From: Malacoraja senta
Lineage: Eukaryota
Assembly: GCA_038087875.1 (NCBI GenBank)
Contig: CM075989.1
Location: 22,880,001-22,944,000, forward strand
Direction of reading: 5' to 3'
Length of the DNA: 64,000 nt
The notes beneath the pieces are model-generated. The model had not been told where the DNA came from. It worked only from the letters and a program-made list of their open reading frames with translations, and made no database searches. Made by a program: the position numbers and the translations under genes. Positions 1,558 to 63,807 of the stretch are shown here, piece by piece (the first letter of the stretch is position 1; each line of letters starts with the position of its first letter).

Positions 1558-2384
1558 CCAAACCAAGCTGAAAGGGATAATGGGCATTTTTCCCATCCAA
1601 CTGGACTGGATTATAGAGCGTAATCCCTCAGGCCAACAGGGGCAGAGTGCCCACCCTTTCTGTCGGGCTTTCGTGCAACTTTTCAGCTGAGATCTGGCCC
1701 TGTCCAACTTGACGTACAATGGATCTGCCACAGAGAGACTCTTCTTATTATTTTGGGCTGCAATTCACAAAAGATGAGCACCGAGATCGCTAAAGGATCC
1801 ACATATTAAAATATGCAGATGAGACATGGCAGAATAGGCATCAAATTCATATTACACCGAATCACAAAAAGAAATCTGATTTTTTTTTTCTCTTTTTTTC
1901 CAGAGCTCAAGTTGTTTTTTTGTGAGTGAAGTTTTCCGCCAGTTACATTATCGCTAAAGCCTTCTTGTAGCTGTCACCTGCAGTGAATATAATTACATCC
2001 TACCTACATCACGTACGCCCACATCTATCCACAGTGGGAGCAGGCAGCTTGCTGCAGGACCCAGCACACAATGGAAGAGAGAGATCCGGCTGACATGCAT
2101 CTCGGGAAGAAAGATCTGTGTGTCCGACTAATAAAAGTGACAGCTTCAGAAGGGAATGACAATCATGCCGCGCACGGTTACTGACGCGAGACGGCCGCAC
2201 TGTGCAAGTGAGTTCCATAGAGAGAGCACAGTTCATTCCACGTACAGTATCCGTCTCCAGAATTACCCCAAACGTCACCCATTCCTTTTTTTCCCCCAGA
2301 GATGCTGTCTGACCCCGTTGAGTTACTCCAGCTTTATTGAGTCTACCAACAATTTAATATCGTCGCGCTCAATTCATGTTCATG

Positions 2385-2870
2385 GGCGGCACGGTGGCGC
2401 AGCGGTAGAGTTGCTGCCCAATGGGCCTGTCCCACTTAGGCGACTCTTTAGGCGACTGCCAGGGACTACTTTTAATGGAATTCACCTACGACACCTGGCG
2501 ACAACCTACGACAGCAAAGATTGTCGCCAAAAATGTTTCAACATGTTGAACATTTTCAGGCAGTCGCCCAAAAAATCACCTAAGTGGGACAGGCCCATTA
2601 CAGCGCCAGAGACCAGGGTTCAATCCTGACCATGGGTGCTGTCTGTACGGAGTTTGTACGTTCTCCCATGAACGCGTGGGTTTTCTCCGGTTTCCTCCTA
2701 CACTACAAAGACTTGCAGGTTTGTCGGTTAAGTGGCTTCTGTAAATTGGCCCTAGCGTGAGGGAAACAAAACTGGTCTAACGTAGAACCCGTGCACGTGA
2801 GATCATTGGGCGGCACGGGCACAGTGGGCTGAAGGGCCTGTTTACATGCCGTACCTCTAAACTGAACTAA
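2385..2870 (+). mobile_element. HE1-like V-SINE interrupted by a MITE
   Basis: SINE head breaks after gttgctgcc and resumes at ttacagcgccagag (2598). Ends in a (aaact)n-like tail. Confidence 0.85.
2422..2597. mobile_element. PIF/Harbinger-like MITE
   Basis: 19-bp perfect TIR tgggcctgtcccacttagg / cctaagtgggacaggccca. Flanks caa / tta. Internal palindrome ttcaacatgttgaa. Confidence 0.8.
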
Positions 2871-3274
2871 AGGTCAGCGCACTGCCTTTTATGATCTCCT
2901 GATAGTTTGCCACATTGTCTCTGACGTTTTATTTCCAGTAAGACTCAGCGACAAGAAGGAAGAATAGGTGCACATTGCAAAAATGGGTGGAATGAGGACA
3001 AAGTATCTCGGTATTGTGAGCACACACAACAGTTTGACCATGGTGTGCAATGCAGAAGGAGCTTTCATAATCTGTGACAATGGCAACAGTCCTTAAGCCA
3101 CAGGGTCATAACAAAATATTACCTTCAGCATAAACCTTTGCAGTGTTCCTAACCTCTATAGAACACCGATAGTGGCAAACACATTGCTACTTAAATACAT
3201 CCACAAGTTTGAAGTTATTTATATATGAATGGGACAAAAGGTTATGAGGAAGACCTTCATAATCTGGAGTCTGC

Positions 3275-16783: not shown

Positions 16784-18599
16784 CTACAGAGCAAGTAGAC
16801 ATTGATTAGCACAAGAGCCCATGGGTTTTACAGTAAATTAATGCGGCATTTAGTTCAAGATACAAGATACATCTATTTGTCACATGTACCAGTTGGTACA
16901 GTGAAGTGTGTGTTCACCGTACAGCCATAGAATAATAGAACACAACACAGGATAGAGTCCAACATAAAACATCCCCACACAGCAGAATCAAAGTGTCCCA
17001 CTGTGAGGGAAGGCACCAAAGTTCACTCATCTTCCTCTGATGTTCTTGATGCTCAGCACTCAGCTTAGAGATACAGCATGGAAACAGGCCCTTCGGCCCA
17101 CCCCTCACCATGTCATCCATACAGTAGCTCGATGTCCTACATACTAGGGGGCAATTTACAGAAGCTAATTAACCTAAGACGACTTTGGAATGTTGATGGA
17201 AACCCGAGCACCCGGAGAAAACCCACGCGGTCACTGGGAGAAGGTACAAACTCCATACAGACGGCACCCGTAGTCGGGATTGATCCCGGTTCCGTGAGGC
17301 AGCAGCTCTATCTACCACTTCACCACTGTAGTTTACAGATACAGCATGGAAATAGGTCCCTTGTCCCACTGTGACCAATCACCCATTCACACTCATTCTA
17401 TCTTACGCTACTTTCACAACCTTTCCCTACACATGAAAAGCAATTCAGAGGCCAGTTTAAACTGTGTACCCACAACTCTCGAGATGCACACACCTGCAGA
17501 CACACACACGCGTACACAGTAACACACACAGACTCACGCACGAATACAGACACAGGCACACACACCTTTCACTATACATCAGGAGTTCTCTGCCACAAGG
17601 AGGCCAATTCACTGGATGTATTCAAGAGAGAGTTTGATTTAGCTTTTAGGGCTGATGGAATCAAGGGATATGGGGAGAAAGCAGGAACGGGGTACTGATT
17701 CGGGATGATCAGCCATGATCATATTGAATGGCAGTGAGGGCTCGAAGGGCCTACCCCGGCACCTATTTTCTATGTTCCTATCTATAATTCTAAGAAAGAT
17801 AACTGCCAGAGGGGTGTGCGCCAAAATAACATGTGAAAGATTCTTTAAAAAAACAATTCAATTTTGCATATCTTCGAATACATATACAAGAGGCCTTATT
17901 AATGATGTCGCAGAGTCTGGTGTTTCATGTTGACATCGAGGAGGTAAAAGACACTTTCAAAGCAATAAGCCAAAGTTGAGTGTGGTGATTTTATATGATA
18001 GCGTTTCCTACGGTCAGTCCCCTTGACCTTTGCGTCAAAGCAAGGCGGACTGAGTGACCAGTCAAGGTTAAAGGTCGTTCGCTAGTTGGCATCGTGAATC
18101 TGACTGTAGTGTAGGTGACAAAAGGCACAGAATTTCAGCGCGCACACACACACATACTGTCTTACGAGGCAATGAATCATGCAGCACTTATTGGCCTTTG
18201 TTTATGAACGGGTTCACATGCTCCATTAGCAGGTAGTGCCGGCATTATTACTTCAGTGTGATGGTTTATACTGCAGCTCAAAGAGCCATCACCAGTAGAA
18301 TTCTTCCACAGCTTGTTTAAGTACTGACTAATTCGGATCGCACGCCACCATAGAGCACAAACAATAACATTTACCTCGGCAGCCTGTATCGTTTGTCCCA
18401 GCCGAAGCATGTGTTATTTATTGAAGAGATAAAAATATGGATGACAAATTACAACTAATTAAAAGGCATCGTGTTTAAGGGCTGGGATTGCTCACTGGTG
18501 CAAACAGTTCCTAATTTCCACACGTTAATATTCAAGAGGTGCACGCAGCAACCCACTCAATAAAACTGCTGCATTGACGGCCAGAATTGTCTCAAAGAG

Positions 18600-22787: not shown

Positions 22788-23800
22788 CTGGGATCAAAAA
22801 TAAAAATAAAACACTCACTGAATTGTACAGAGAGAAATTCCCCAGCTCATCCCCCTCGCCAGGCACCACACTGTGATTATACATAACTTTCATATTTTCT
22901 CATGACACATGAGGCCGTTGATGTCAACACCATCTCACACGGTCATATTATTAGCCCCATCCCCACCGGTTTATCACTTGTGCCCAACACCCCCTGCTTC
23001 CCCACACTTCCGCAGGAGCAGTTTACTTCAGTTTAATGTAGAGATACAGCGCGGCCCACCGAGTCGGCACCGACCAGCGATCCCCGCACATTAACACTAC
23101 CCTACACACCCTAGGGACATTTCTTTACGCTTATACCAAGCCAATTAATGTACAAAGGAAACTGAAGATCCGGGAGAAATTCCACGCAGGTCACGTGGAG
23201 AACGTACAAACTCCACACCGACAGCACCCATAGTCGGGATCGAACCCGGGTCTCTGGCGCTGTAAGGCAGCAACTCTACCGCTGCGCCACCGTGCCGCCC
23301 AACTTGGACAGTAATTTATAGAAGCCAATTAATCGATCAACCCGTGTGTCTTTGGAAGGTAGGAAGACGATAGATCGCCCCACAGAAACTGGGAGAAGGT
23401 GCAGACTCCACACAGACAGCACTGCAGGTCAGGATAGACTCAGATCACAATAGTTGAGAGGCAACCGCACTACCCGCAGCATGTGTGTGCCACACTACAA
23501 ATAGAGCTCCGCTGGGAATTCCTCTGCTCTCTCGCTGTGAAGTTAGCCGAGGTGGGAGCGCAGGTCCGAGACATGTTTGGCCAAAGTTAGGCTCTTCAGA
23601 ATAGCACCTGTTTGTCCTCTTCCATGCCAACTGTGTTTAATTGAGCTAAGATCATTTGACGGGCTGACAATTCACTTCAAGACTTTTTGTTTTGCAAATG
23701 CAAAAGATTAACTTCATCTCCAGAGTTTTGGCGACTGAATTATTTTGTAGACACGAGTCTTTTAGAGAAAGCTTAAATCATAACAAGAAAATCCATAATA

Positions 23801-28230: not shown

Positions 28231-28464
28231 AGGGCTTGTCCCACTCGCCGATATTTTCGGCGACTGCCGGCATCATTGATTGTCGTATCAGGTCACCGAA
28301 AATACGCGGCGGTGACGTGACGTGATGACGTATGACGCGCGGTGTTTTTTCAAGTGTCGTAACATTTTTTTGTCGCTGCTGGACTTTGAAATGTTCAAAA
28401 TCTTTTGGCGACACTGATATGACGCCGGCAGTAGCCGAAAAAATCGCCAAGTGGGACAGGCCCC
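28231..28464. mobile_element. Harbinger-like MITE
   Basis: TIR agggcttgtcccactcgccga / tcgccaagtgggacaggcccc, tta on both flanks. Confidence 0.8.
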
Positions 28465-28863
28465 TTACAGTTCAACAGTACGACGATCCTCCAGTGTTGC
28501 CATTTATAAATTAATGATCCCACTAGCTCATCTGGTCTTCCCTAAAAGGTTATATTACAGTAAATTTGGGAAATATCCTGCTACTTTGAAATTAGAAAAC
28601 CATAGGTAGAGAGAAAAAAAACATCAAATTTTCAGCTCCACTGCCATTAAAACCAATAAGAGCTCACTAACCACTTTATTGCCAATGCCTTTATACGTAT
28701 AGAAAAAAATATATATATATCTGAATAAATTAAGTAATTCACCCGTCTAATTTCATTCACCCCAAAATAATTTCATTCACCCTTGGGTGAACCATTCCCC
28801 AGTTTAAGAAGCACTGCTCTACATCACCGTCTGTATCTCTCGTTTCCCTATCCCCCGACTCTC

Positions 28864-28897: not shown

Positions 28898-30709
28898 TAT
28901 TCCTTCTCTCCAGAGATGCTGCCTGTCCCGCCGAGTTACTCCAGCATTTCTTGTCTACCTCCAGATTCCAAATAGAGGGATGTGGATCATGTGCAGGCAG
29001 GTGAGGTTAGTATAACTTGGCATTGTGTTTTGTACAGACATTGTGGGCCAAATGGCCTCTTCCTGTGTAGAACTATTCTGCTTTTTCACAGATCCATACA
29101 GCGTGGAAACAAGCCCTTCAGCCCAACTTTCCCACACCAACCAACATGGCCCATCTACACTAGTCCCACCTGCCAGTGTTTGGTCCATACCCCTCCAAAC
29201 CTGTCCTATCCATGTCCCTGTCCAAATTGTGATCGTACCTGTGTTTTATGTTGCACAGGTGTATCGTGGCATTTAATGCTAACTTGCCTCCATTTAAAGG
29301 CAAACTCAGGTGCAGAGTTGGGGAGAAAAGAGCAAGATCGATAAGGTTTTATTATTAATGTTTAATGTTTTATGTGTCATTCCAAACTGTCACTGTATGT
29401 CATGTTGTCACTTGCGGGTGGAGCACCAAGGCAAATTCCTTGTATGTGAATACTTGGCCAATAAACTTATTCATTCATTCATTCATAAACAAATTAGACT
29501 TGTTAACATGATCAGTGTAGATTGTAAGTAGACAAAAATGCTGGAGAAACTCAATGGGTGAGGCAGCATCTATGGAGTCTGAAGAAGGGTCTCGACCCGA
29601 AACGTCGCCTATTCATTCTCTCCATAGATGCTGCCTGACCCGCTGATTTCCTCCAGAATTTTGCATCTATATCCCAGCCAATCTCACACACCCTTCCAGA
29701 CATTGTCTCCCCCGTTTTAAGGATAATTATGGGAAATTGCAAATGCGGCAAATGAAAACATGGGCTTCAGCGCACTGAAGGAATTGACATCTGCTGCCGA
29801 ACAAGGCAAATAATGTAACAGGACATTGAATCACTGTCCACTTCCTCACCCGCCCTGGGAATTATTTTAGCCAGGGTTTATTGTTCATGTAATGTAATCG
29901 GCCTGTTGCAATCTCCCCTCTTCTGCCATTTCACACAGATCAACGGGGAAGGTGTCCTGCTGGGTTTCAATGGCCAGACTAAAAACAGATTATCATACAA
30001 CCCAGAAGTCTGCAAGTAGGTTGCCACCTTTTCTCATAACTGCATAACAAGCGGGAATGTCAGAGTCTAGACCGAAAGGTCATAGCCTCAGAATTACAGG
30101 ACGCTCTTTTAGGAAGGAGTCGAGGAGAAATTTCTTTCATCAGAGGGTGGTGAATCTGAATGAATAAGTTTATTGGCCAAGTATTCACATACAAGGAATT
30201 TGCCTTGGTGCTCTGCCCGCAAGTGACAACATGACACACAGTGACAGTTAGGAACGACACATAAGACATTAAACATTAATAATAAAACATTATTGATTAA
30301 ACATGTGAAATGTTGATTAAATCTGTGGAATTCTTTGCCGCACAAGGCTGTGGAGGCCAAGTCAGCGGTTATATTTAAGGCAGAGATAGATAGATTCTTC
30401 ATCAGAACAGGTGCCAGAGGTTATGGGGAGAAGGCAGGAGAATGTAGTTAGGAGCGAGAGATAGATCAGCAATGATTGAATGGCGGAGTAGACTTGATGG
30501 GCCGAATGGCCTAATTCTACTCCTATTCCTTATGACTGACTCCAATTTTACATCATTGGCTAGTAAGCAACGTGGGTCAGGGGGAGAAAAATCCTATTTT
30601 GATGGAAATGTTGGTGTACAAGTTTGTCCAACTTCCGTCAGATTATACTACTGTATTTGACAACACGTACAAAAAAACAGCAGCAATGTATTTGACGTTG
30701 TACACTTAC

Positions 30710-30840
30710 ACGCCAAAGCTTTCTTCTTGCTTCATGCTGTCCTTCCCACAGACTTCTACTTCCAGAATATTTGGCCTGTCGTTGAACAGATGGAGATGAA
30801 ACCTCTCTCTCCACTGAGGGTTTGCGCACTTGTACAGGGC
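30710..30840 (-). CDS. MCTP2: MCTP2 coding exon (131 nt): ALYKCANPQWRERFHLHLFNDRPNILEVEVCGKDSMKQEESFG
   Basis: cctctag acceptor, gtaagt donor. NPQWRE C2 motif. In frame. Confidence 0.94.
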
Positions 30841-30949
30841 CTAGAGGGGAGGAAATGGACAAGATTTAATTTAATGGCCTTTAAAACTGAGTGACCACAA
30901 ATGCTGAAGTTTAATAATTATCTGCAGATGCTGGTTTACACCGAAGATA

Positions 30950-31538
30950 GACACAAAAAGCTGGAGTAACTCAGCGGGACAGGCAGCATCTCCGGAGAGA
31001 AGGAATGGGTGACCTTTCGGGTCGAAACAGTTAATCTGTGGAACTCATTGCCACAGAGGGCTGTGGAGGCCGTCAGTTGATTTTTTAAAGGCAGAGGTAG
31101 ACAAATTCTTGATTAGAACGGGTGTCAGGGGTTATGGGGAGAAGGCAGGAAAATGGGATTAGGAGGCAGAGATCAGCCATGATTGAATGGCAGAGTAGAC
31201 TCGATGGGCCGAATGGCCTAATTCTGCTCCTATAATGTCACCATTCCTTCTCTCCAGAGGAGTAGAATTAGGCCATTCGGCCCATCGAGGCCACTCTGCC
31301 ATTCAATCATGGCTGATCTCTGCCTCCCATCCCATTTTCCTGCCTTCTCCCCATAACCCTTGACACCCATTCTAATCAACAATTTGTCTATCTCTGCCTT
31401 AAAAAAAAATCAACTGACGGCCTCCACAGCCCTCAGTGGCAATGAGTTCCACAGATTAACTGTTTTGACCAGAAAGGTCACCCATTCCTTCTCTCCAGAG
31501 ATGCTGCCTGTCCCGCGGAGTTACTCCAGCACTTTGTA
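30950..31538. repeat. Long inverted repeat of a PLE+CR1 composite (arms about 30950-31231 and 31258-31538)
   Basis: Arms are reverse complements, including the chimeric junction gtcgaaacagttaatctgtgg / ccacagattaactgttttgac. Confidence 0.9.
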
Positions 31539-31557
31539 TCTGCCTGCTGATACACAC

Positions 31558-40500: not shown

Positions 40501-40990
40501 GGAAGATTGGAAGAGTTGCTGAAATTGATGCTGCATGTATTTGTTCATGTTGGTACATGCTTTTGTAATTTCCAGGGTTGCAAGACACAGCATATAATAC
40601 AGCAACGTCCACTTCAGAAACCAGAGCATCATCGCCTGGTCCCCAGTATTGGTACCACTCAACACTGGGGCAGCACGGTGACGCAGCGGTAGAGTTGCTG
40701 ACTTACAACGCCAGAGACCCGGGTTCGATCCTGACCACGGGTGCTGTCTGTGCGGAGTTTGTACGTTCTCCCCGTGGCCGCGTGGGTTTTCTCCGAATGC
40801 TTCCGTTTCCTTCCACACTCCAAAAACGTACAGGTTTGTACATTAACTGGCCTCTGAGTCACACAGAGCTGAAAGAGGCCTTTCACCCAACTTGTCCATG
40901 TCGACCAAGGTGTTCCATCTACATTGGTCCCACCTGCCCAAGTTTGCCCAATATCCCTCTGAACCTGTCCAATTGTCTTTTGCAGAGTTT

Positions 40991-41837
40991 TGGGCGGTTA
41001 CGGTGGCACAGCGGTAGAGTTGCTGCCTCACAGCGAATGCAGCGACAGAGACCCGGGTTCGATTCCGATTACGGGTTCTGTCTGTACGGAGTCTGTGCGT
41101 TCTCCCCCGTGACCTGTGTGGATTTTCTCAGAGATCTTCGTTTTCCTTCCACATTCCAAAGACGTACTGATTTGTAGGTTAATTGGCTTAGTAAATGTAA
41201 AAATTGTCCCTAGTGGGTGTTGGATGGTGTCAATGTGTGGGGATTTCTGGACGGCGCGGACCTGGTGGGCCGAAGGGCCTGTTTCCGTGCTGTATCTCTA
41301 AAACTAAAAAAACAGAGGGTGGTGAATCTCTGGCACTTTCTACTCTGATGGGTAATAGGTGTATCATTTGTAGCATTGAATGGGGAGGCACACAAATGTT
41401 TGGGGGAGAGAGGGGTGTGGAGAAATAGCCCTGAACGACGTAGAATTGGTAGCATTGATTTTCTGTTTTTGCACTATTATCGTTTGTTTGTTCTTAAGAG
41501 TATGTTTAGTTTAACTTTGTTTAGTTTAGAGATACAGTGCGGAAACTGGCCCTTCGGCCCACCGAGTCTGCCCAGCCCATTAACACTATCCCGCACATTA
41601 ACACTGTCCTACACCCACTAGGGACAATTTTTACATTTACCAAGCCAATTAACCGACAAACCTGCACGCCTTTGGAGTGTGGGAGGAAACCGAAGATCTC
41701 GGAGAAAACCCATGCAGGTCACGGGGGGGGGGGAACGTACAAACTCCGTACAGACAGCACCCGTGGTCTGGATCGAACCCGGGTCTCCGGCGCTGCATTC
41801 GCTGTAAGGCAGCAACTCTACCGCCTCGCCACCGTGA
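40991..41837. mobile_element. Tail-to-tail V-SINE pair of one subfamily (plus 40991-41305, minus 41520-41837)
   Basis: Both carry the cagcgaatgcagcg head insertion and the gagatcttcg variant. Confidence 0.82.
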
Positions 41838-42055
41838 CCCACTGAGTTGATCCAGCGTGTTGTGTCCATCTTGGCCACAGTCACCTATTGGTTGGCTTGA
41901 TACATTGGCAACACAGTGTGGCCTTGAAGGTCTGAAGACTCCGCACTAAAGCGTTTTGCTTCCAAACTCGGCTAATAAAACCAGTTTCTTTTATTTTAAA
42001 CATTGGGCTGATGAAAGCATGGGGAAGATGAATGAAAGAGCAAAGCCTTACTTAC

Positions 42056-43539: not shown

Positions 43540-43780
43540 GATAGACACAAAATGCTGGAGTAACTCAGCGGGACGGGCAGCTTCTCTGGAGAGAAGGAGT
43601 GGGTGACGTTTCAGGTCGAGACCTTTCTTCAGATTGAAGAAGTCAGGTCTGAACAAGGGCCTCGATCTGAAATATCACCCAATCCTTCTCTCTGGAAATG
43701 CTGCCCGTCCCGCTGAGTTACTCCAGCATTTATGACTATCTTTGGTTTAAACCAGCATCTGCAGTTGGTTCCTTCCTACA
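43540..43780. mobile_element. PLE-derived hairpin element (two inverted pseudo-LTR arms)
   Basis: acacaaaatgctggagtaactcagcgg...cttcaga followed by its reverse complement. Similar elements at about 4067, 11112, 29528, 39125, 42662, 43355, 46497 and 63255. Confidence 0.8.
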
Positions 43781-44084
43781 CATTTGATCAGACTTTACTG
43801 ACTTTATCTCGCACTAGACTTTATTCCCTTTATCCTGTATCTGTACCCTGTAAATGGATCGATTGTAATCATGTATTGTCTTTCCGCTGACTGGTTAGCA
43901 CGCAACAAAAGCTTTTCACTTTACCTCGGTACGCGTGACAATAAACTACACTAAGTTGTTCAACAGTAGATTTCCTGCAATGCATCGAGGCTCGACGCGT
44001 GCCCAAGACTCAACAATAATCCTGGGATAGAAAGTCCATTTTCAAAATGCATCCGTGGCTAATTAATAGTCGGGAAATGGAAGT

Positions 44085-44590
44085 AGAAGGAACTGCAGAT
44101 GCTGGTTTACAAAAAAGAAGGCAAAAAGTGCTGGAGTATTTCAGTAGGTCAGGTAGCATCTCTGTGGGGGACATGGTGGGGGATGTTTCAGGTGTGGAAA
44201 CCTTTTTCAGGCTGATGATTGTTGAGCAGGGGGTTGGGGGGGAAAGCAGGAAAGGGGGAATGTTGGGGTTAGCCTGCCAAGCCATAGACAGGTGCACATG
44301 TGGGGAGTGGGAGTTTGATTGCCACATGGACAGACAAAGGCTAGACATGAAAAGGAGACAGGATGATGCGAGATGAAGGGAGAGGAGGAATAAAGTGTGA
44401 TACCAGAGGAAGGGATAGAGGTGGAAGGGGGAAAGGATAGTGGGAGGAATGGGTGTGCCCCTGGGTGGGACACAAGGAACAGAGAAGGGGAAAAAGGTGA
44501 GGGTGGGGATTACCAAAAATTGGAGAATTTGATATTTATACCATTGGGTTGCAAGCTACCCTAACAGAATACAGGGTGCTGTTTCTCCAA
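44085..44590 (-). mobile_element. Older Penelope-like element 3' end
   Basis: pLTR-like start, purine-rich UTR, and degenerate match to the GIY-YIG C-terminus seen at 1334-1420. Confidence 0.65.
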
Positions 44591-45160
44591 TAAGATCATA
44601 AGACTATAAGACAAAGAAGCAGAATTAGGCTATTCATCCCATTGTCTACTCTGCCATTGAACCCCAGCTGACCTAGTTTTCCCTCTCAACCCCATTCTCC
44701 TCCCTTCTTCTTGCAACCTTTGAGATCCTTACCAACCTTTGACGCCCTTACTAATCAAGAGCCTAGTAATCTCTGCCTTCAGAATACCCACTGACTTGGG
44801 TATGAAGGAACTGCAGATGCTGGTTTAAACCAAAGATAGACTTCTTCGGATCTGAAGAAGGGTCTCGACCCGAAACGTCACCCATTCCTTCTCTCCAGAG
44901 ATGCTGCCTGTCCCGCTGAGTTACTCCAGCATTTTGTGTCTATCCCACTGACTTGGCCTCCACCACAATCTGTGGCAATGAACTCCACATTCACAACCCT
45001 CTGACTAAAGAAACTCCTCCTCATCTCCATTCTGAAGGTACGTCCTTTTAGTTTGAGGCTGTCCCGATCTCTCCCACTGCTGGAACCAGCAATGGAAAGA
45101 TACTAATAGTACATAAGTCAACAAATACGAAATGTAGTAGCCTTAGAACCTTTTACTCAC

Positions 45161-45272: not shown

Positions 45273-45654
45273 CTGAAAGAAAAACTCCACAATCAAAAAA
45301 TATCTTCCCACTCTCGCACAACTTCTTCTGGTGAACATGTTAGATGTCATTTACCCCCAATCAACGTCAGAAAGGGAAAATTAGAACCATTTTGCTGGCC
45401 ACCGATTAGTACAATATGAACATGGTGCTACACAAGGACACGGCGAGGAATCAGATGGCCATGCTTCAATGGGATTATTTTTAGTTTGACTTCCCAATAC
45501 AGCAGTCCCAAAGGAAAGATGGATACAAAAAGCTGGAGTAACTCAGCGGGTCAGGCAGCATCTCTGGGGAAAAGGAATAGGTGACGTTTCGGGGTCGAAC
45601 CCCTTCTTCAGACTGAGAGTCAGGGGAAAGAGGAACGAGAGATATAGACGGTGA

Positions 45655-46200
45655 TAATTGGAGTACAATTTTGGTCGCCTAATTATAGGAAGGATGTCAA
45701 CAAAATAGAGAGAGTACAGAGGAGATTTACTAGAATGTTGCCTGGGTTTCAGCAACTAAGTTACAGAGAAAGGTTGAACAAGTTAGGTTTTTATTCTTTG
45801 GAGCGCAGAAGGTTAAGAGGGGACTTGATAGAGGTCTTTAAAATTATGAGCGGGTTAGACAGAGTTGACGTGGATAAGCTTTTTCCATTGAGAGTAGGGA
45901 AGATTCAAACAAGGGGATGTGACTTGAGAATTAAGGGACAGAAGTTTAGGGGTAACATTAGGGGGAACTTCTTTACTCAGAGAGTGGTAGCTGTGTGGAA
46001 TGAGCTTCCAGTGGAAGTGGTGGAGGCTGGTTCGATTTTATCCTTTAAAAATAGATTGGATGGGTATATGGACGGGAAAGGAATGGAGGGTTATGGTCTG
46101 AGTGCAGGTAGATGGGACTAGGGGGAAGTATTTTTTTTTTTTTAATTTTAAAATGTTCGGCACGGACTTGAAGGGCCGAGGTGGCCTGTTTCCGTGCTGT
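45655..46200 (+). mobile_element. CR1 LINE ORF2 C-terminus (intact frame) plus UTR
   Basis: Track ORF 45651..46121: VQFWSPNYRKDVNKIERVQRRFTRMLPG...WNELP. Confidence 0.92.
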
Positions 46201-47285: not shown

Positions 47286-47362
47286 CTGTTTATTTCAAGA
47301 TCATTGAGATTGAGATATGCAGAACCCATAAAATCGTCAGTGGCCAAGTCTCGGTCATATAC
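47286..47362 (-). CDS. MCTP2: MCTP2 coding exon (77 nt): VYDRDLATDDFMGSAYLNLNDLEIN
   Basis: cag acceptor, gtaat donor. In frame with the previous exon. C2 loop-3 motif YDxD...DFMG. Confidence 0.95.
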
Positions 47363-47521
47363 CTGTTAGCAGAGAGATTGTCGAATTGTCATTGCCATCA
47401 CAACAAGTTTACTACAAACTAGAGGATAATGTAGAACATTTTTTCTGCTCAAATTTGAAGTGCCAGTTCCTGCACTGTCACATACGTGAGAAGATTTAAT
47501 GTCCCTGCCAGACCACACAGG

Positions 47522-48115
47522 ACCACGGTGGCGCAGCGGTAAAGTTGCTGTCTTATGGGCCTGTCCCACGGGCGATTTTTTAGGCAACTACAGGTGACCA
47601 TATGTTCGCCGGTGGTCGCGGGGAGTCGTCTCCTCAGTCGCACAAAAAGACATAATGTCTTTCGGGTCACCGCTAAATTTTTAACATGTTGAAACATTTT
47701 CGGTGACAGTTTGACGCCAATGAGCGTAGCTCGACTTCTCCTGAATTAGCTGCTGCCGTAGGTTGTCGCCAGGATGACGTAGGTTGTCGCCGGTTTTTCG
47801 GCGACCTGCTACAACTATGACAGTCGCCGGCAGTTGCCCATTACAGCGCCAGAGGCCCAGGTTCGATCCCGACTACAGGTGCTGCCTGCGCGGAGTTTGC
47901 CGTACATTCTCCCTGTGACCTGCGTGGCATTTCTCCAAGTGGAAGAGGTGATAACGAACGAATATTTTTCCCACACTCCAAATTCGCACAGGTTTGTACG
48001 TTAATTGGCTACGGCAAAATTGTAAATTGTCCCGAGTGTGTGGGATAGTGTTAGCGTGCGGGGTGAGCGCTCAGTGGGCCGAAGGGCCTGTTTCCGCACT
48101 GTATCTCTAAAGTCT
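47522..48115 (+). mobile_element. V-SINE interrupted by a MITE
   Basis: Head breaks at gttgctgtc-tta and resumes at tta-cagcgccagag (47841). Confidence 0.82.
47556..47840. mobile_element. Harbinger-like MITE with right TIR mostly deleted
   Basis: Starts tgggcctgtcccac, ends gccca, tta TSD. Interior is reverse-complementary to part of the 2422 MITE. Confidence 0.78.
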
Positions 48116-48386
48116 AAAGAAAATGATTTCATTTAACAAAATGTGATTAGTCGGAAAAAAAAAAAAAGTTGATCAAAACACAAGATGATTTGTCTGGCAT
48201 GGTGGAAGCAGTGTGATGCCCATTCAACATAGTCAAATATAGATTCATAAATCAATCGTTCCAAATGAGATTTGACAAACGTATTACAGCACAGGATGTG
48301 GCCCTTTTACCCATTCCTTGCCAGCAGGGAAACCCCATCAGTCTCGTTCCCTGTTGTCTAATTGCCCTGCAGCCCAGCAGCACTAA

Positions 48387-48959
48387 AAGGCCTGTCCCAC
48401 TTGCCGATTTTTTCGGAGACTGCCGTCATTGTTGACTGACGTATCAGGTCACCGAAAAATACATATTCGCTCGTTATCACCTCTTCCACAGCCAACAATG
48501 GACCATTGTGGGCTCCACCTCTCCTCAGTCTTCGATGCCAGCTCCGATATGTTCTGATCCTTTTCATATCTCTAGTTTCCTTCAGGCTTTCGACCCAAAA
48601 CGTTACCTATTTTTGTGTCTATCTTCGGTGTAAACCAGCATCTGCAGTTCCTTCCTACAGTCTGTCCTCTTTCCAGGTCTCATTGAAACATAGAAAATAG
48701 GTGCAAGAGTCGGCCATTCGGCCCTTCGAGCTAGTACAACCATTCGGTATGATCATGGCTGATCATCCAGAATCAGTTCCCCCCGTTCCTGTCGCGGGGT
48801 AATGCCTGTATGGTCGTGAGTAGTCGCCCAAAGAGTCGTACCTTTTTCTGGTCTCCGCTGGATTTTCAACATGTTTAAAATTTTCGGCGACCTGTTGTAA
48901 CTATGATGGGTGCTGGCAAGTCATGGGAAAAAAAAAATCGTGGAAGTGGGACAGACCCT
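48387..48959. mobile_element. Composite Harbinger-like MITE ends enclosing PLE and CR1 fragments
   Basis: Left end resembles 28231. Right end is the reverse complement of 54282-54441. taa on both flanks. Confidence 0.65.
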
Positions 48960-49038
48960 TAACAAAGCACGACCATTAACCCAAACCGGTGAACTGAACC
49001 CAAACACAGCCAATAAACATGAACAAAGAGCATAATAA

Positions 49039-49240
49039 AGCCCGTCCCACTTTCACGACCTCTGCCGAGTTTACCCTTGACTCATACTCGCAGCATGGTC
49101 GTCACGAGGTCGTAGCTAGGTCATGATGTTAGTCGTAGGTACTCGTGGCATCAAGTAGGTCGGGGCGTTTTTCTAGCCTGATGAAAAAGTCCACGAGTAA
49201 AAAAGGTCATGAATTAGGTCGTGAAAGTGGGACTGGCCCT
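49039..49240. mobile_element. Harbinger-like MITE about 65 nt from the C2A exon donor
   Basis: TIR gtcccactttcacgacct / aggtcgtgaaagtgggac. Confidence 0.78.
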
Positions 49241-49304
49241 TCACAGAATGTGGGAGGAAATCTTGGTAAAACACAAGAAAACATTTTGGCAGGGTTTTCT
49301 TTAC

Positions 49305-49447
49305 CTTGACATAAAGCTTTTGATTTAAGTTCTTGACTGGAACAACAAAGGTTTCATCCCACCGAGGATTCAGGTTTTTATAAACTATCTTGCTCTTGTA
49401 CAAAGTCTTCCCAGCAAGTTTAAACTTGACGTATGGATCACTCGTGC
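49305..49447 (-). CDS. MCTP2: MCTP2 coding exon, C2A domain (143 nt): [48 protein letters not shown]
   Basis: Acceptor ttttttcactttcag, donor gtaa. C2 motifs SDPYV and NLNPxWDE. Closely resembles vertebrate MCTP2 C2A as recalled. Confidence 0.95.
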
Positions 49448-50968
49448 CTGAAAGTGAAAAAAATATAGATGTTAAATATTGCCACAACGGTTTCTTGGCA
49501 TTTCCTTCGAGTCCCTGGGGGATAGAATTGTAAAAACGCACACCTCCACATTCAGGGACAGTTTCTTCCCCGCTGTTATAGGCAACTGAATCATCCTACC
49601 ACAACCAGAGAGCAGTGTTGAACTACTATCTACATCATTGGGCAGGACTTGCTCCCTTCAGAAAGGAGATGAGGAGGAATTTATTTAACCAGAGGGTGGT
49701 GAATCTGTGAAATTCATTGCCACAGATGGCTGTGGAGGCCAAGACATTTGGGTTTTTTTTAAAGCAGAGATTTATAGGTTCATGATTAGTAAGGGCGTCA
49801 AAGGTTTTGGGGTGAAGGCAGGAGAATGGGGTTGTGAGAGAAAGATAGATCAGCCATGATTGAATGTCAGAGTAGACTTGATGGGCTGAATGGCCTAATT
49901 CTACTCCGACATCTTCTGGTCTTGTGGAAATCCAGCTAGTGAAGCTGCCTAGACAATACTGGCCCTCGTGCTCAATACAAAGGTGATGGAAGATGGTACA
50001 CAAACATTATTTCTTCCTCATACAGACACAAACTCAGCGGGACAGGCAGCATCTCTGCAGAAAAGGAACGGGTGATGTTTGGGGTCGAGACCCTTCTTCA
50101 GACTGAGCGTCAGGGGAAAGGGCAACGAGATATGGACGGTGATGTAGAGAGATGTAGAACAAATGAATGAACAATATGCAAAAAAGTGACGATGATACAG
50201 GCCACTGTTAGCTGTGGTCAGGGTGAAAACGAGAATGGCGAGAGATGGGCTGAATGGCCTAATTCACCTCGTACGTCTTAGATACAATATAGACAGTACT
50301 TGGGACACATGAACGGAAAATACGCAAAAAGCAACAATAAACAAGGAAAGGTGGAGCCCACAATGGTCCATTGTTGGCTGTGGGATAGGTGATAATGAAG
50401 GGATACAGACAGTGAAACTCAACAGGACGACAGTGAAACTAGTACGATCCACAACACAATATTCCTCCTTCAAGCATACGGCTGCCAGCCTGACGTATCA
50501 GAGACAGACACAGAACGCTGGAGTAACTCAGCGGGACAGGCAGCATCTCAGGAGAGAAGGAATGGGTGACGTTTCGGGTCGAGACCCTTCTTCAGACTTT
50601 TCAGAGACATTGAGGCAGTGCGCAGAGTGAATGAGGGAGCCAGAGGAAAGGAATTCAGCGCCTGGCTGCTGTCAGAGTAACTGTGAAGAGGAGGAGAAGC
50701 TGGCTGCCAAATCACAGCCAGCGCTGAGGATGACCTGTGAATGGGCAGGCGGGCTGTCGGAGCTGTGAGTCATTAACGGCTGAGACAAGGGAGAGCAGTC
50801 TCTGAGTCCCATCGACAATGATCTGAGCAAATCTGATCACCCATGACAGGAAGGAATATGTCTCCTCCTTGCTGCCTGCTTTGGGAAACAGCATCAATAC
50901 TCACTGCGATTCATTTTTAAAATGCAGTTACAGAACTTGTGGCCAACAAACCAAGTTTAGTTTAGTTA

Positions 50969-51470
50969 AGGGGCTGTCCCACTGCGGCGACCTAATTGGC
51001 AAGTTTAGAAGAGTTTAGGAGAATTTGAAAAAGTGTCACGTTGAAGACCTCCTTCGACTATGTTGAAGACTAGCTACGACTAACTGGGGAAAATTGGACA
51101 CTGAATAGTGGAGAGTGAAGACGACCTCCTTCGACCTCCCTTCGACTATGATGAAGACTATCTACGACTACCTTCGACTACCCTCGAATACCTACGACTA
51201 ACATGTCGACCTACTACGACCTAACCTACGAGTAAAAAAAGTATCGATTTTTTTCCATGGCGACCTTTTTTTTTACTCACGGACATTTTTCGGCATGTTG
51301 AAAAATAAGCCGCGACATAGCTGAGGCCTCGAGTACGCGGGGACTACTCTCGAGCATGAAGGAGAGTTACAAAGACCTCCAAGGACCTCGTGTCGACCAT
51401 GCTACGAGTATGAGTCGAGGGCAAACTCTTCTGAACTCGCGGATTAGGTCGCCGCAGTGGGACAGCCCCT
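50969..51470. mobile_element. Harbinger-like MITE with internal (cgacta/cgacct) arrays
   Basis: Perfect TIR aggggctgtcccactgcggcgacctaat / attaggtcgccgcagtgggacagcccct, tta TSD. Confidence 0.85.
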
Positions 51471-51999
51471 TTACAAAGTGCTGGAGTCTGTAAAGGGGCT
51501 GTCCCACTGCGGGCCTGGCAACATCTCTGGAGAAAAGGAATAGGTGATGCTTCTGGTCGGAACCCTTCTAAACCATCGAGTCTAATCACAAAGTGCTGGA
51601 AAGTGAAGAAGGGCCTCGACCCGAAACGTCACCTATTCCTTCGCTCCATAGATGCTGCCTCACCTGCTGAGCTTCTCCAGCATTTTAAACAAAGTGCTGG
51701 GGTAACTCAGCAGATCAGGCAGCATCACTGGAGAAAAGGAACGGGTGACGTTTCGGGTCAGAAGCTTTCTAAACACTTTAGTTTAGTTTAGTGATAGAGG
51801 TTGGAAGCAGACCCTTCGACCCACCGAGTCCACACCAACCAGCAATCACCCTTGCAATAGTTATACGTTGCAACAATTTACAAATGCACAGACGACACCA
51901 CTGTTATGAGCCGGATATCAAATAATGATAAGACCTCCAGTTTAAATTCCATTTGGAATAGTTTGGAGGACCAAGAAACCAAGAACCACGAACCAAAAT

Positions 52000-52640
52000 C
52001 CTTTTGCTTTCATAGCAAAAGGATTTGAGTATAGGAGCAGGGAGGTTCTGCTGCAGTTGTACAGGGTCTTGGTGAGACCACACCTGGAGTATTGCGTACA
52101 GTTTTGGTCTCCAAATCTGAGGAAGGACATTATAGCCATAGAGGGAGTACAGAGAAGGTTCACCAGACTGATTCCTGGGATGTCAGGACTTTCATATGAT
52201 GAAAGACTGGATAGACTCGTCTTATACTCGCTGGAATTTAGGAGATTGAGAGGGGATCTTATAGAAACGTACAAAATTCTTATGGGGTTGGACAGGCTAG
52301 ATGCAGGAAGTTTGTTCCCGATGTTGGGGAAGTCCAGGACAAGGGGTCACAGCTTAAGGATAAGGGGGAAATCCTTTAAGACCGAGATGAGGAAAAACAT
52401 TTTCACACAGAGAGTGGTGAATCTCTGGAACTCTCTGCCACAGAGGGTAGTTGAGGCCAGTTCATTGGCTATATTTAAGAGGGAGTTAGATGTGGCCCTT
52501 GTGGCTAAGGGGATCAGGGGGTATGGAGAGAAGGCAGGTACGGGATACTGAGTTGGATGATCAGCCATGATCATATTGAATGGCGGTGCAGGCTCGAAGG
52601 GCCGAATGGCCTACTCCTGCACCTATTTTCTATGTATCTA
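52000..52640 (+). mobile_element. Young CR1 LINE 3' fragment
   Basis: Track ORF 52057..52551 is open to the natural stop (GEKAGTGY*), followed by UTR and a (tctatg)-type tail. Confidence 0.93.
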
Positions 52641-52647
52641 TGTATCT

Positions 52648-53340
52648 AAGTACAGGAAGGAGATCGAGAACCTCATGACCTGGTGTCGAGACAACAACCT
52701 TTCTCTCAATGTCAGCAAGACAAAGGAGATCGTGGCAGACTTCAGGAAGCAAAGCGGTGCACATACCCAAGCATACATTGACGGCACTCGAGTCGAGCTT
52801 GGTTAAATATCACCAGCATCCTGGACCAGTCACATTGAAGCAATGGCCAAGAAAGCACACCAACGCCTCTACTTAACTTGGGCTAAGGAAGTTCAGCAAG
52901 TTCCCAAAAACTCTCACCAACTTCTACAGATGCGCCGTAGAGAGCATTTTATTGGGTTGCATCACAGCTTGGTTTGGGAACAGCTCCATCCAAATCAGCA
53001 AGGAATTGCAGCGGATTGTGGACAAAGCCCAGGCCATCACAAAACCCAACCTCCCTCCCTTCCATTGACTCCATCTACACCTCACGCTGCCTCGGCAAGG
53101 CCATCAGCATAATCAAGGACCAGTCTCACCCCGGCCACTCCCTCTTCTCCCCTCTCCCATCAGGCAAGAGGTACAGAAGTGTGAAAACGCTCACCTCAAG
53201 ATTCAGGGACAGTTTCTTCCCAGTTGTTATCAGGCAACTGAACCGTCCTCTCACCAGCTAGAGAGCAGTCCTGACCTCCCATCTACATCATCAGAGTCCT
53301 TCAAACTAATCAGACTTTATCTTGCAATCAACGTTATTCC
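52648..53340 (+). mobile_element. Rex1/Babar-type LINE fragment
   Basis: YRKEIENLMTWCRDNNLSLNVSKTKEIVADFRK...KKAHQRLY...SRFRDSFFP. Confidence 0.82.
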
Positions 53341-53341
53341 C

Positions 53342-53660
53342 GTTAGTTTAGTTTAGGGATACAGTGCAGAAACAGGCCCTTCGGCCCAGCGAGTCCACAC
53401 CGACCAGCGATCCCCGCACGTTAAACCTACACACACCAGGGACAATTTACACTTATACCAAGTGCACAAACCCAAGCCAATTAACCTAAAAACCTGCACG
53501 TCTTTGGAGTGTGGGAGGAAACCGAAGATCTCGGAGAAAACCCACGCGGTCACGGGGAGAACGTACAGACTCCGTACAGACAGCACCCATGGTCAGGATC
53601 GAACCAGGGACTCAGGCGCTGCAAGCGCTGTAAGGCAGCAACTCTACCGCTGCGCCACTG
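53342..53660 (-). mobile_element. V-SINE
   Basis: Full head, V-domain and tail on the minus strand. Confidence 0.85.
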
Positions 53661-54281
53661 CGGATCTGTACACTGTGGACCGGGCTTGATTGTAGTCATG
53701 TACAGTCTGCCCCCTTGTCTTAAGGCCTAATGTTGCAAAAAGAACCATGCAGGAATGAATTTCACATCAAAAGGAATTAGGAAAAGAAAATAGAGGAAAT
53801 GAGATCGACAGAAAGTTACCTAATAGCGAATTGAGAATCAATTTTACAAAGTAATCAGTTTATTTAACTTCCACATTTACAAAGAACGATCTCAGTCATC
53901 TCACACCAATTCTAACTTGTTTCATCTCAATTTTGTGTGCTTTCTCCTCCGTTTTCAAGTGTGAAATAGGATTACTCTACTTTGTGAATAAAGATTCTGC
54001 CAATTGACATGGTGTACCACGTGCATTAGTACGGGTGTCATGGGTTACGGGGAGAAGGCAGGAGAATGGAGATGACAGGGAGATAGATCAGCCACGATTG
54101 ATTGATTGACAGAGTAGACATGATGGGCCGAATGGCTAATTCTGCTCCCAGAACTCATGACGTGCTCCGCAACCGATGAGGGACAAATAGAGTTAATGTC
54201 TCTGATCCAATCCTCTGTCACAATTTTGTCTCATTAAGACTTGGATTAACAATATGGTACAGCGGTAGAGTTGCGGCCTAA

Positions 54282-54441
54282 AGGGCCTGTCCCACTTACG
54301 CGATTTTTTCGGCGACTTGCCGGCACCCGTCATAGTCGCAGCAGGTCTCTGAAAATTTTCAACATGTTGAAAATCCAGCGGTGACTAGAAAAAGGTACGA
54401 CTCTTTGGGCGACTACTCACGACCATACAGGCGTCACCCCG
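54282..54441. mobile_element. Harbinger-like MITE left half joined to a SINE head (54255-54281) and SINE tail (54442-54482)
   Basis: agcggtagagttgcggcc-taa-agggcctgtcccactt. Contains palindrome ttttcaacatgttgaaaa. Confidence 0.75.
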
Positions 54442-55129
54442 CCAAATGGCCTGTTTCCGTGCTGAATCTCTAAACTAAACTAAGATGAAGACTTAGTTTA
54501 AAGAGACTGGAATCTGGAACAAAAACCCAGACACCATGTACATTTTGCCTTCAAAGATGCTGCTTGACCCAGTGAATTATTCTCGCGATCTGGGAGGTTT
54601 ATTTTAAGATATTTAAAGCGGCATGTTAAAATGATAATGTTTCAAGCAAATTCACACTTCATAGCATTTTAAAAGGGTTGAAAGTTTCTGTAAATGCATT
54701 CACAAGTGCCACCATTTATACAAACCAGAATATTTTGCATCAGTAACGTTTTCACCCACACCTCAGGCACGGAGATACCTTTTAATTAAAAACAAACACT
54801 TGGTTCTTCACTGGGAAATGGGGCCAAGGAAAGAGCGTTCACGTCGCGGCCCTGTTTCCACCAATCTTTCCATCACCGCACACAAGAAGCGCCAAGACAG
54901 ACACCATTGTATGCAGATGCCGAGAAGTGGCTGAGCAACTTCTAATCTTGTGTGTGGACTCAATAAGAAGAAGAAGCCTGGGAAATAAGTCTTTAGCAGC
55001 AGTTTTATTCACCATTGTGAGCAGCAAAGATTCAGCTGCAACTGCTTACGTTATGTCGATGGCATTGGATCTCAGGAATAAAATGCAAGGAACACAAGTT
55101 TACTTTACTTAAGACATTGCAGATACATA

Positions 55130-63119: not shown

Positions 63120-63807
63120 AGCCCCTGTCCCACTTATGTGCCCTTGGCACGCTAATTACACGACCTCGTCGTCGCGTGGAGGTGCTACGGTCCCGCGAAG
63201 GTCAAGCGCGACTTAATTCGTACGCACAGCCGTCTGGAGCGCGTGACGTCATTTGAAGATGGACACAAAGCTGGAGTAACTCAGCGGGACCGGCAGCATC
63301 TCTGGAGAGAAGCAATGGGTGATGTTTCGGGTCGAGACCGTTCTTTCAGACTGAAGAAGGGTCTTGACCCAAAACATCATCCATTCCTTCTCTCCAGAGA
63401 TGCTGCCGGTCCCGCTGAGTTACTCCAGCATTTTGTGTCTATCTTCAATTTTCTTGGCCCCGCTCTGGGGAGTAGAAGCGGGGGCGGATCCGGATCCGCA
63501 ACGGCCGTGAGCCCCAGGCCGAGCTCGGCCATCGTTTGCCTGCTTCTGCTGCTGTTGGAGGTGAGACGTTGCGCTGCACCAGGGTCTTGTGCCTGTCCCA
63601 CTTTGGCCGTCAGTTACGCGACAGACCGTTGGCGCGCGAAGATTTCGTTCGCTACAAAATTTCGGAGCGCCGCGCCATACAACTACATACCCCTCCACGT
63701 TTCTCAGTGGGACCGGCCCCGCGCGGCCACACGATGCCCGTGCGCCTCAACGCAACCACGAGGTCGCGTAATTTGCGTGCCAAGGACACGTAAGTGGGAC
63801 AGGCCCT
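63120..63807. mobile_element. Large CpG-rich Harbinger-like MITE carrying a PLE hairpin (about 63255-63447)
   Basis: Long imperfect TIR agcccctgtcccacttatgtgcccttggcacgc / gcgtgccaaggacacgtaagtgggacaggccct, taa TSD. Confidence 0.82.

Follow-up and report, generated by a model that had tools for sequence, protein, structure and literature searches.

Likely separate insertions of putative PIF/Harbinger-like MITEs at one position of a V-SINE head

In a 64,000-nucleotide stretch of Malacoraja senta DNA (assembly GCA_038087875.1, contig CM075989.1, positions 22,880,001 to 22,944,000 of the forward strand; hereafter the window), three MITEs, at 2422, 47556 and 54282, each start directly after the same triplet in the head of a SINE, between its A- and B-box-like motifs. 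A preliminary description of the window had placed three elements at one position of the V-SINE head, separating the two boxes, and our reading of the junctions confirmed this arrangement. The clustering at the SINE site within the window is real, and we lean, with some caution, towards the reading that a PIF/Harbinger-like MITE family has a sequence-set hotspot in an abundant SINE and that separate insertions filled it. We propose that three MITEs share one SINE triplet because the bases around it match a longer target preferred by the transposase. Empty heads hold a single TTA and 47556 is flanked by TTA twice, as this reading would have it; counting against it, a matching duplication is missing at two of the three SINE sites, and the loci number nine in all.

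Table 1. Positions of the SINE-resident MITEs, their hosts, the empty SINE sites and, in the last six rows, the related elements outside SINE heads.
Feature	Position	Strand	Remark
Host SINE 1, 5' head part, A-box-like TGGCGCAGCGG at 2395-2405	2384..2418	+	
Left flank triplet CAA, unlike right triplet TTA	2419..2421	+	
176-bp MITE, TIRs 2422-2460 / 2559-2597 (35/39 alike), central AACATGTT palindrome	2422..2597	.	
Right flank triplet TTA	2598..2600	+	
Remainder of host SINE 1: B-box-like motif at 2617-2626, V domain starting at 2640, tail of CTAAA type	2601..2871	+	
Host SINE 2, 5' part, ends in TTA (47553-47555)	47524..47555	+	
285-bp MITE, TTA/TTA, opposite orientation to 2422 and 54282	47556..47840	.	
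TTA and remainder of host SINE 2, B-box-like 47860-47869	47841..48119	+	
Host SINE 3, short 5' part, ends in TAA (54279-54281)	54255..54281	+	
MITE, left 161 bp, right end lost, 86% identical to right end of non-SINE 48387	54282..54442	.	
SINE tail abutting truncated MITE; remaining MITE and SINE body deleted	54443..54483	+	
Empty SINE-head TTA sites (n=7)	23263..23265 (-); 11769, 14297, 16167, 40703 (+); 41807, 53633 (-)		single TTA, the pre-insertion state
MITE, flanks TTA/TAA	13130..13764	.	
MITE, TTA/TTA, then CAG	28231..28464	.	
MITE, TAA/TAA, then CAA; other repeats nested within	48387..48959	.	
MITE, degenerate left end, TAA/TCA	49039..49240	.	
MITE, TTA/TTA, then CAA	50969..51470	.	
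MITE, TAA/TAA; another repeat nested within	63120..63807	.	

The window is repeat-rich vertebrate DNA, in which nearby opposed repeats give long inverted pairs of 70–140 nt (29337–31541, 40996–41839 and 43540–44944; 214 pairs). Searching it with the 13-mer GGGCCTGTCCCAC returned 25 matches at up to two mismatches, as against 1.51 expected, and the matches resolved to nine MITE loci that end in DGGGCCTGTCCCAC-type sequence and are flanked by TWA, so that the end search and the inspection of flanks bore out the nine loci with shared ends, three of them in the V-SINE head, that had been described. An end at 51494 was rejected as a separate insertion, because it derives from the 51470 end by fold-back copying; it is a third terminal repeat that faces outward, and 51490–51512 repeats the 51470 end in reverse within a neighbouring repeat (region 51452–51512), the arrangement that a fold-back template switch would give. 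Five of the nine loci fall within 7 kb (47556–54442) and may mark a regional hotspot or have arisen by local hopping.

The element ends begin DGGGC, and across 17 of them the first base is A in 12, G in one and T in four, or T in five and A in 11 if the deleted right end of 47556 is counted. T starts both ends of 2422, both ends of 47556 (the right one deleted) and the left end of 13130; the right terminal repeat of 47556 has an internal deletion, from which GCCCA remains. Matching TWA triplets stand on both sides of five of the eight elements that have both ends, the other three being discordant (CAA/TTA, TTA/TAA and TAA/TCA, with the discordant triplets at 2419, 13127/13765 and 49036/49241), and at 54279 the triplet is TAA where SINE heads read TTA. 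At 2422 and 13130 the triplet mismatch extends the inverted repeat. The MITEs are non-coding, with no coding capacity seen in 2422–2597, and Pfam found no transposase or Myb family among 146 of the 163 open frames of at least 85 amino acids in the window. Two open frames (45648–46121 and 51946–52551, both on the plus strand) that gave no Pfam match presumably encode the C-terminal portion of a LINE protein of the CR1 type, which they resemble. The MITE at 49039–49240 adjoins a C2-domain exon within 49176–49595 on the minus strand (PF00168, E=1e-12), whose best solved match is synaptotagmin-7.

PIF/Harbinger elements are marked by a TWA duplication and short terminal repeats (PMC4482050, excerpt). 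The TWA target-site duplication of a PIF/Harbinger MITE is present here, and the terminal inverted repeats at 2422, at 39 bp, compare with a length of less than 60 bp in PIF/Harbinger MITEs; the ends and flanks, the only features on which we base the superfamily, point to a PIF/Harbinger-like family. Chapaev3, which also uses TWA, was considered and rejected, since its ends begin CAC (PMC3014272, excerpt) and the ends here begin DGGGC. The motif GTCCCAC was absent from the three text supplementary files of PMC4482050.

Heads of the host SINE number at least 26 in the window (from 35 rows, of which six second-side rows were merged and three weak or out-of-register ones, at 17305, 24000 and 43980, were dropped), and across these 26 the target triplet is TCA in 12, TTA in seven and something else in four, the remaining three being filled by a MITE. 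This SINE may be HE1. Motifs resembling the A and B boxes lie 43 bases apart in an intact copy, and the tail is of the CTAAA type; ARAGORN, Rfam and folding yielded no tRNA call or cloverleaf for the head. In by-eye counts against the supplementary alignment of PMC6887750 (excerpt), in which the V-domain part of MER6 is aligned with V-SINE Ac1, the V domain of the host SINE at 2640–2689 matched the MER6 part in 44 of 51 columns, and that of an intact SINE copy (40745–40795) matched it in 46 of 51. HE1 has been described as a V-SINE of sharks and rays (PMC4824008, excerpt). A subfamily of the SINE in the window carries nine additional bases, CAGCGCTTG or CAGCGAATG, directly after the target triplet (11769, 41028, 41807 and 53633), and none of its four copies is filled by a MITE. 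The SINE tails (2832–2871, 48078–48119 and others) contain AAGGGCCTGTTTCC, whose likeness to the MITE end AAGGGCCTGTCCC is probably a coincidence.

TTA, which had been named as the target triplet, stands on both sides of 47556 alone; 2422 has CAA on the left and TTA on the right, and 54282 has TAA on the left and has lost its right end. Presuming that the three filled heads read TTA before insertion, there are 10 TWA-type heads, three of which are filled, compared with six of the 1761 other TWA sites (Fisher p=1.1e-5). As a correction for the post-hoc choice of site, we grouped the 1770 TWA sites by homology into classes and, in each of 10,000 repeats, picked nine sites at random; under uniform TWA choice, some homologous class received at least three of the nine draws in 0.07–0.12% of the repeats (~0.001). 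The SINE head is the twelfth largest site class at the loosest threshold, and the other listed classes are all unfilled. Among the 124 TWA sites in SINE-like bases, no further filled site appeared except 50969, the left flank of which resembles the SINE tail.

An extended target preference had also been invoked, and the flanks of the six non-SINE copies, a small sample, support it: G or C adjoins TWA in 11 of their 12 half-sites, against a background of 38%, and the second base is A or T in 11 of the 12. TWA followed by CA, said to occur at 28465, 48960 and 51471, is there on inspection of the flanks. For plant PIF/Harbinger elements a target preference spanning 9 bp is reported, and for vertebrate ones a preference spanning 15 bp (PMC2836001, excerpt). 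The motif S-TWA-CAR fits three of the six non-SINE elements and all three SINE sites (assuming the right flank of 54282), and the SINE head offers C-TTA-CAG. By comparison set, the SINE excess has p=0.0013 against S-TWA-S sites, 0.015 against S-TWA-CA, 0.10 against S-TWA-CAR and 0.07 against S-TWA-CAG. Within S-TWA-CAR, a motif that was picked post hoc and misses three of the six non-SINE elements, three of nine SINE sites are filled versus three of 33 others (p=0.10), and draws limited to this motif produced at least three SINE-head picks in 22–29% of trials. Heads of the TCA type are filled in none of 12 cases, which would fit a preference for TWA but is not significant (p=0.08).

The same target data bear on the alternative that the transposase or a Myb/SANT partner recognises the SINE or tRNA-like head in the manner of Dada elements, whether by a longer sequence, a hairpin or Pol III factors, which we think unlikely. 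It would fit the occupancy of 30% of TWA-type heads, and it would fit the failure of matrices with independent positions, derived from the 12 non-SINE half-sites, to explain the excess, the SINE head having 0.6–2.2% of the target weight and a probability of 2e-5 to 8e-4 of receiving at least three of nine insertions; on its left side the SINE has C at the second base, where the non-SINE sites show A or T. Larger site classes (11–31 members) are all unfilled. Another repeat, which carries AG-TTA-CT and fits the matrix, is filled in none of its 31 copies versus three of 10 SINE heads (p=0.011); this repeat family may be younger, as one copy of it sits inside MITE 63120. Dada families, for their part, hit the anticodon region of tRNA genes and the A box (PMC8869645, excerpt). 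Against recognition of the head, six of the nine elements are not in SINE heads at all, and one of these six is the nearest kin of a SINE resident; both orientations are present, and the excess vanishes under a short local motif. The GCTG-CCTTA-CAGC stem-loop that had been put forward as a landing cue also fared badly, being no stabler than shuffled sequence (−3.5 kcal/mol, z −1.06, equalled by 24 of 200 shuffles) and belonging to a head without a cloverleaf or tRNA match. It is similarly doubtful that a vertebrate PIF/Harbinger lineage homes on the tRNA-like head of the most abundant SINE and fills up to one third of the suitable copies, splitting the Pol III promoter and silencing the retroposon.

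Whether the three SINE residents arrived separately turns on their interiors and their hosts. The elements at 2422 and 47556 had been said to share internal sequence in opposite orientations; what they share is collinear and reversed, and it amounts to only two 34-nt pieces (91% and 88%). The interior of 54282 does differ, as claimed, and is not unrelated, having in common with 47556, reversed, one stretch of 72 nt (78%) and another of 38 nt (82%). The relative orientation of 2422 and 54282 is not readable, their common sequence being palindromic. The nearest relative of 54282 is the non-SINE element 48387 (86% over 166 nt), with an alignment score of 241 versus at most 75 for the other two SINE residents. 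Because the three interiors differ, the elements face both ways and 54282 is most closely related to an element that is not in a SINE, we infer that the three SINE-site MITEs are likely to be separate insertions; these features, together with the dissimilarity of the hosts, support the independent insertion at one SINE position that the preliminary description had argued for.

We find it quite unlikely that one or two founders were instead copied along with their SINE, by retrotransposition or gene conversion, and that their interiors later diverged, swapped or inverted. Copying would suit the identical position of all three elements, the TGGGCC that starts both 2422 and 47556, and the left triplet xAA in two of the three, which has no explanation; SINE–MITE composites have also spread in the reverse arrangement, in MER6 (PMC6887750, excerpt). 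The three differing interiors and two orientations speak against it, and the 5′ flanks of the hosts differ. The two testable host SINEs are 77% alike over 100 nt, which places them near the bottom of both rankings, and they are not sisters in either tree. An AU test rejected a clade of these two hosts on 100 nt (p=0.003), but a second, on 170 nt of host SINE, did not reject it (p=0.40); because the two tests disagree, the host-SINE tree, which has no starred branch, is weak evidence. Pol III transcripts terminate at runs of T, and the T6 runs that lie some 20 bases into 47556 and 54282 would cut such a transcript short; 2422 has only T4, like most intact SINE copies. Given the T6 runs in two of the MITEs and an A-to-B distance of 222 or 331 rather than 43 bases, copying of a composite by Pol III appears unlikely.

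Contigs from four sequencing runs reach into two of the elements. A contig from run X1 (organism A, 19 differences in ~270 bases) leads out of unique flank, across the SINE half, and enters the terminal repeat of 47556 by 14 bases, and contigs from all four runs extend ~26 bases into element 48387; with both overlaps below the 31-base bridging threshold, they only suggest that the insertions at 47556 and 48387 predate the split of the compared organisms. The age of the insertions could be the cause of the decayed duplications. No empty orthologous site appeared among the 32 contig pieces listed over 47300–49300, which is no proof of absence. Between 47569 and 47570 the summed depth drops in each of the four runs; reading this drop as a count of the SINE–TIR junction was considered and rejected, depth not being copy number.

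Chance in one window, spotted post hoc, is a very unlikely explanation: there are just three events in one window of many, and if flanks are biased towards G/C, three of nine fall on some repeated site in 1.4–7% of draws, but under uniform TWA choice the figure is only the 0.07–0.12% given above, and the SINE-head class itself reaches 0.07–0.13% under the G/C-bias models.

On the reading that we favour, a sequence-set hotspot filled by separate insertions, a PIF/Harbinger-type transposase would have inserted the elements by cut and paste in separate events. This transposase is predicted to favour TWA within a longer sequence, approximately S-TWA-CAR, of which every TTA-type SINE copy would supply one, and the site would be set by primary sequence and not by SINE structure or Pol III factors. 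With the insertions, the B box follows the A box by 222 or 331 bases in place of 43, and T runs are added; Pol III could probably no longer use a filled SINE as a template, which would make the SINE a passive landing pad, not a carrier. Against this reading stand the matrix result, the C at the second base on the left side of the SINE and the unfilled AG-TTA-CT repeat.

So understood, the clustering would be a neat consequence of a known property, with no new mechanism. Were it to hold genome-wide, the SINE site would present a great number of almost identical target copies and serve as a natural reporter, from which the target code of a vertebrate Harbinger-type element could be read base by base (TTA versus TCA heads, point variants, and SINE subfamilies by age). 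Presence/absence markers at the SINE site carry a warning, in that parallel origin is possible. If targeting exceeds local sequence, there would be a second DNA-transposon route to small-RNA genes besides Dada, of interest for site-directed transposon tools.

A full-text literature search, judged by titles and the openings of abstracts, turned up no TWA MITEs at a fixed V-SINE site; subscription papers, Repbase and supplementary repeat libraries may include such families. Thirteen metagenome loci that combine an element end with TWA were taken as chance, since none matches the window over more than 24 nt and one of them proved unrelated beyond the motif, and viral contigs contained no SINE–TIR junction.

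Among known systems, PIF/Harbinger elements and Tourist-like MITEs (PIF, mPing and Harbinger3_DR) resemble the family here in their TWA duplication, short TIRs, small non-coding elements and flank preference (PMC4482050 and PMC2836001, excerpts). They differ in that their first base is usually A or G, whereas two of the three SINE-resident copies here have T; the preferred site here, moreover, is inside a SINE head, and no autonomous element was seen. Plants likewise have hotspots of nested MITEs, with rice Ditto serving as a target for other repeats and carrot DcSto having parallel insertion sites; in these, different MITEs entered one repeat family or one exact position independently (PMC5172404 and PMC6881990, excerpts). 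Here, unlike in the plant cases, the target is the head of a vertebrate retroposon; in rice, MITEs are reported to have seldom inserted into class I elements (PMC5172404, excerpt), and carrot DcSto is a Stowaway found at orthologous sites, whereas the sites here belong to paralogous repeats (PMC6881990, excerpt).

Dada elements, too, are DNA transposons that keep to one place within Pol III units of tRNA or tRNA-like type, the anticodon region being one such place (PMC3706591 and PMC8869645, excerpts); the word SINE is absent from the main text of these two papers. Dada elements lack TIRs, make 6–7 bp duplications and target near-strictly (PMC3706591, excerpt), whereas the family here has TIRs, 3-bp flanks and six of its nine elements outside SINE heads, and membership of Dada was ruled out on these grounds. 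The host, a putative HE1, resembles the V-SINE superfamily in having a head with A- and B-box-like motifs followed by a V domain (PMC4824008, excerpt). MER6 likewise combines a MITE with a V-SINE, but in the reverse nesting, with a piece of V-SINE inside a Mariner MITE that spread as a single composite (PMC6887750, excerpt).
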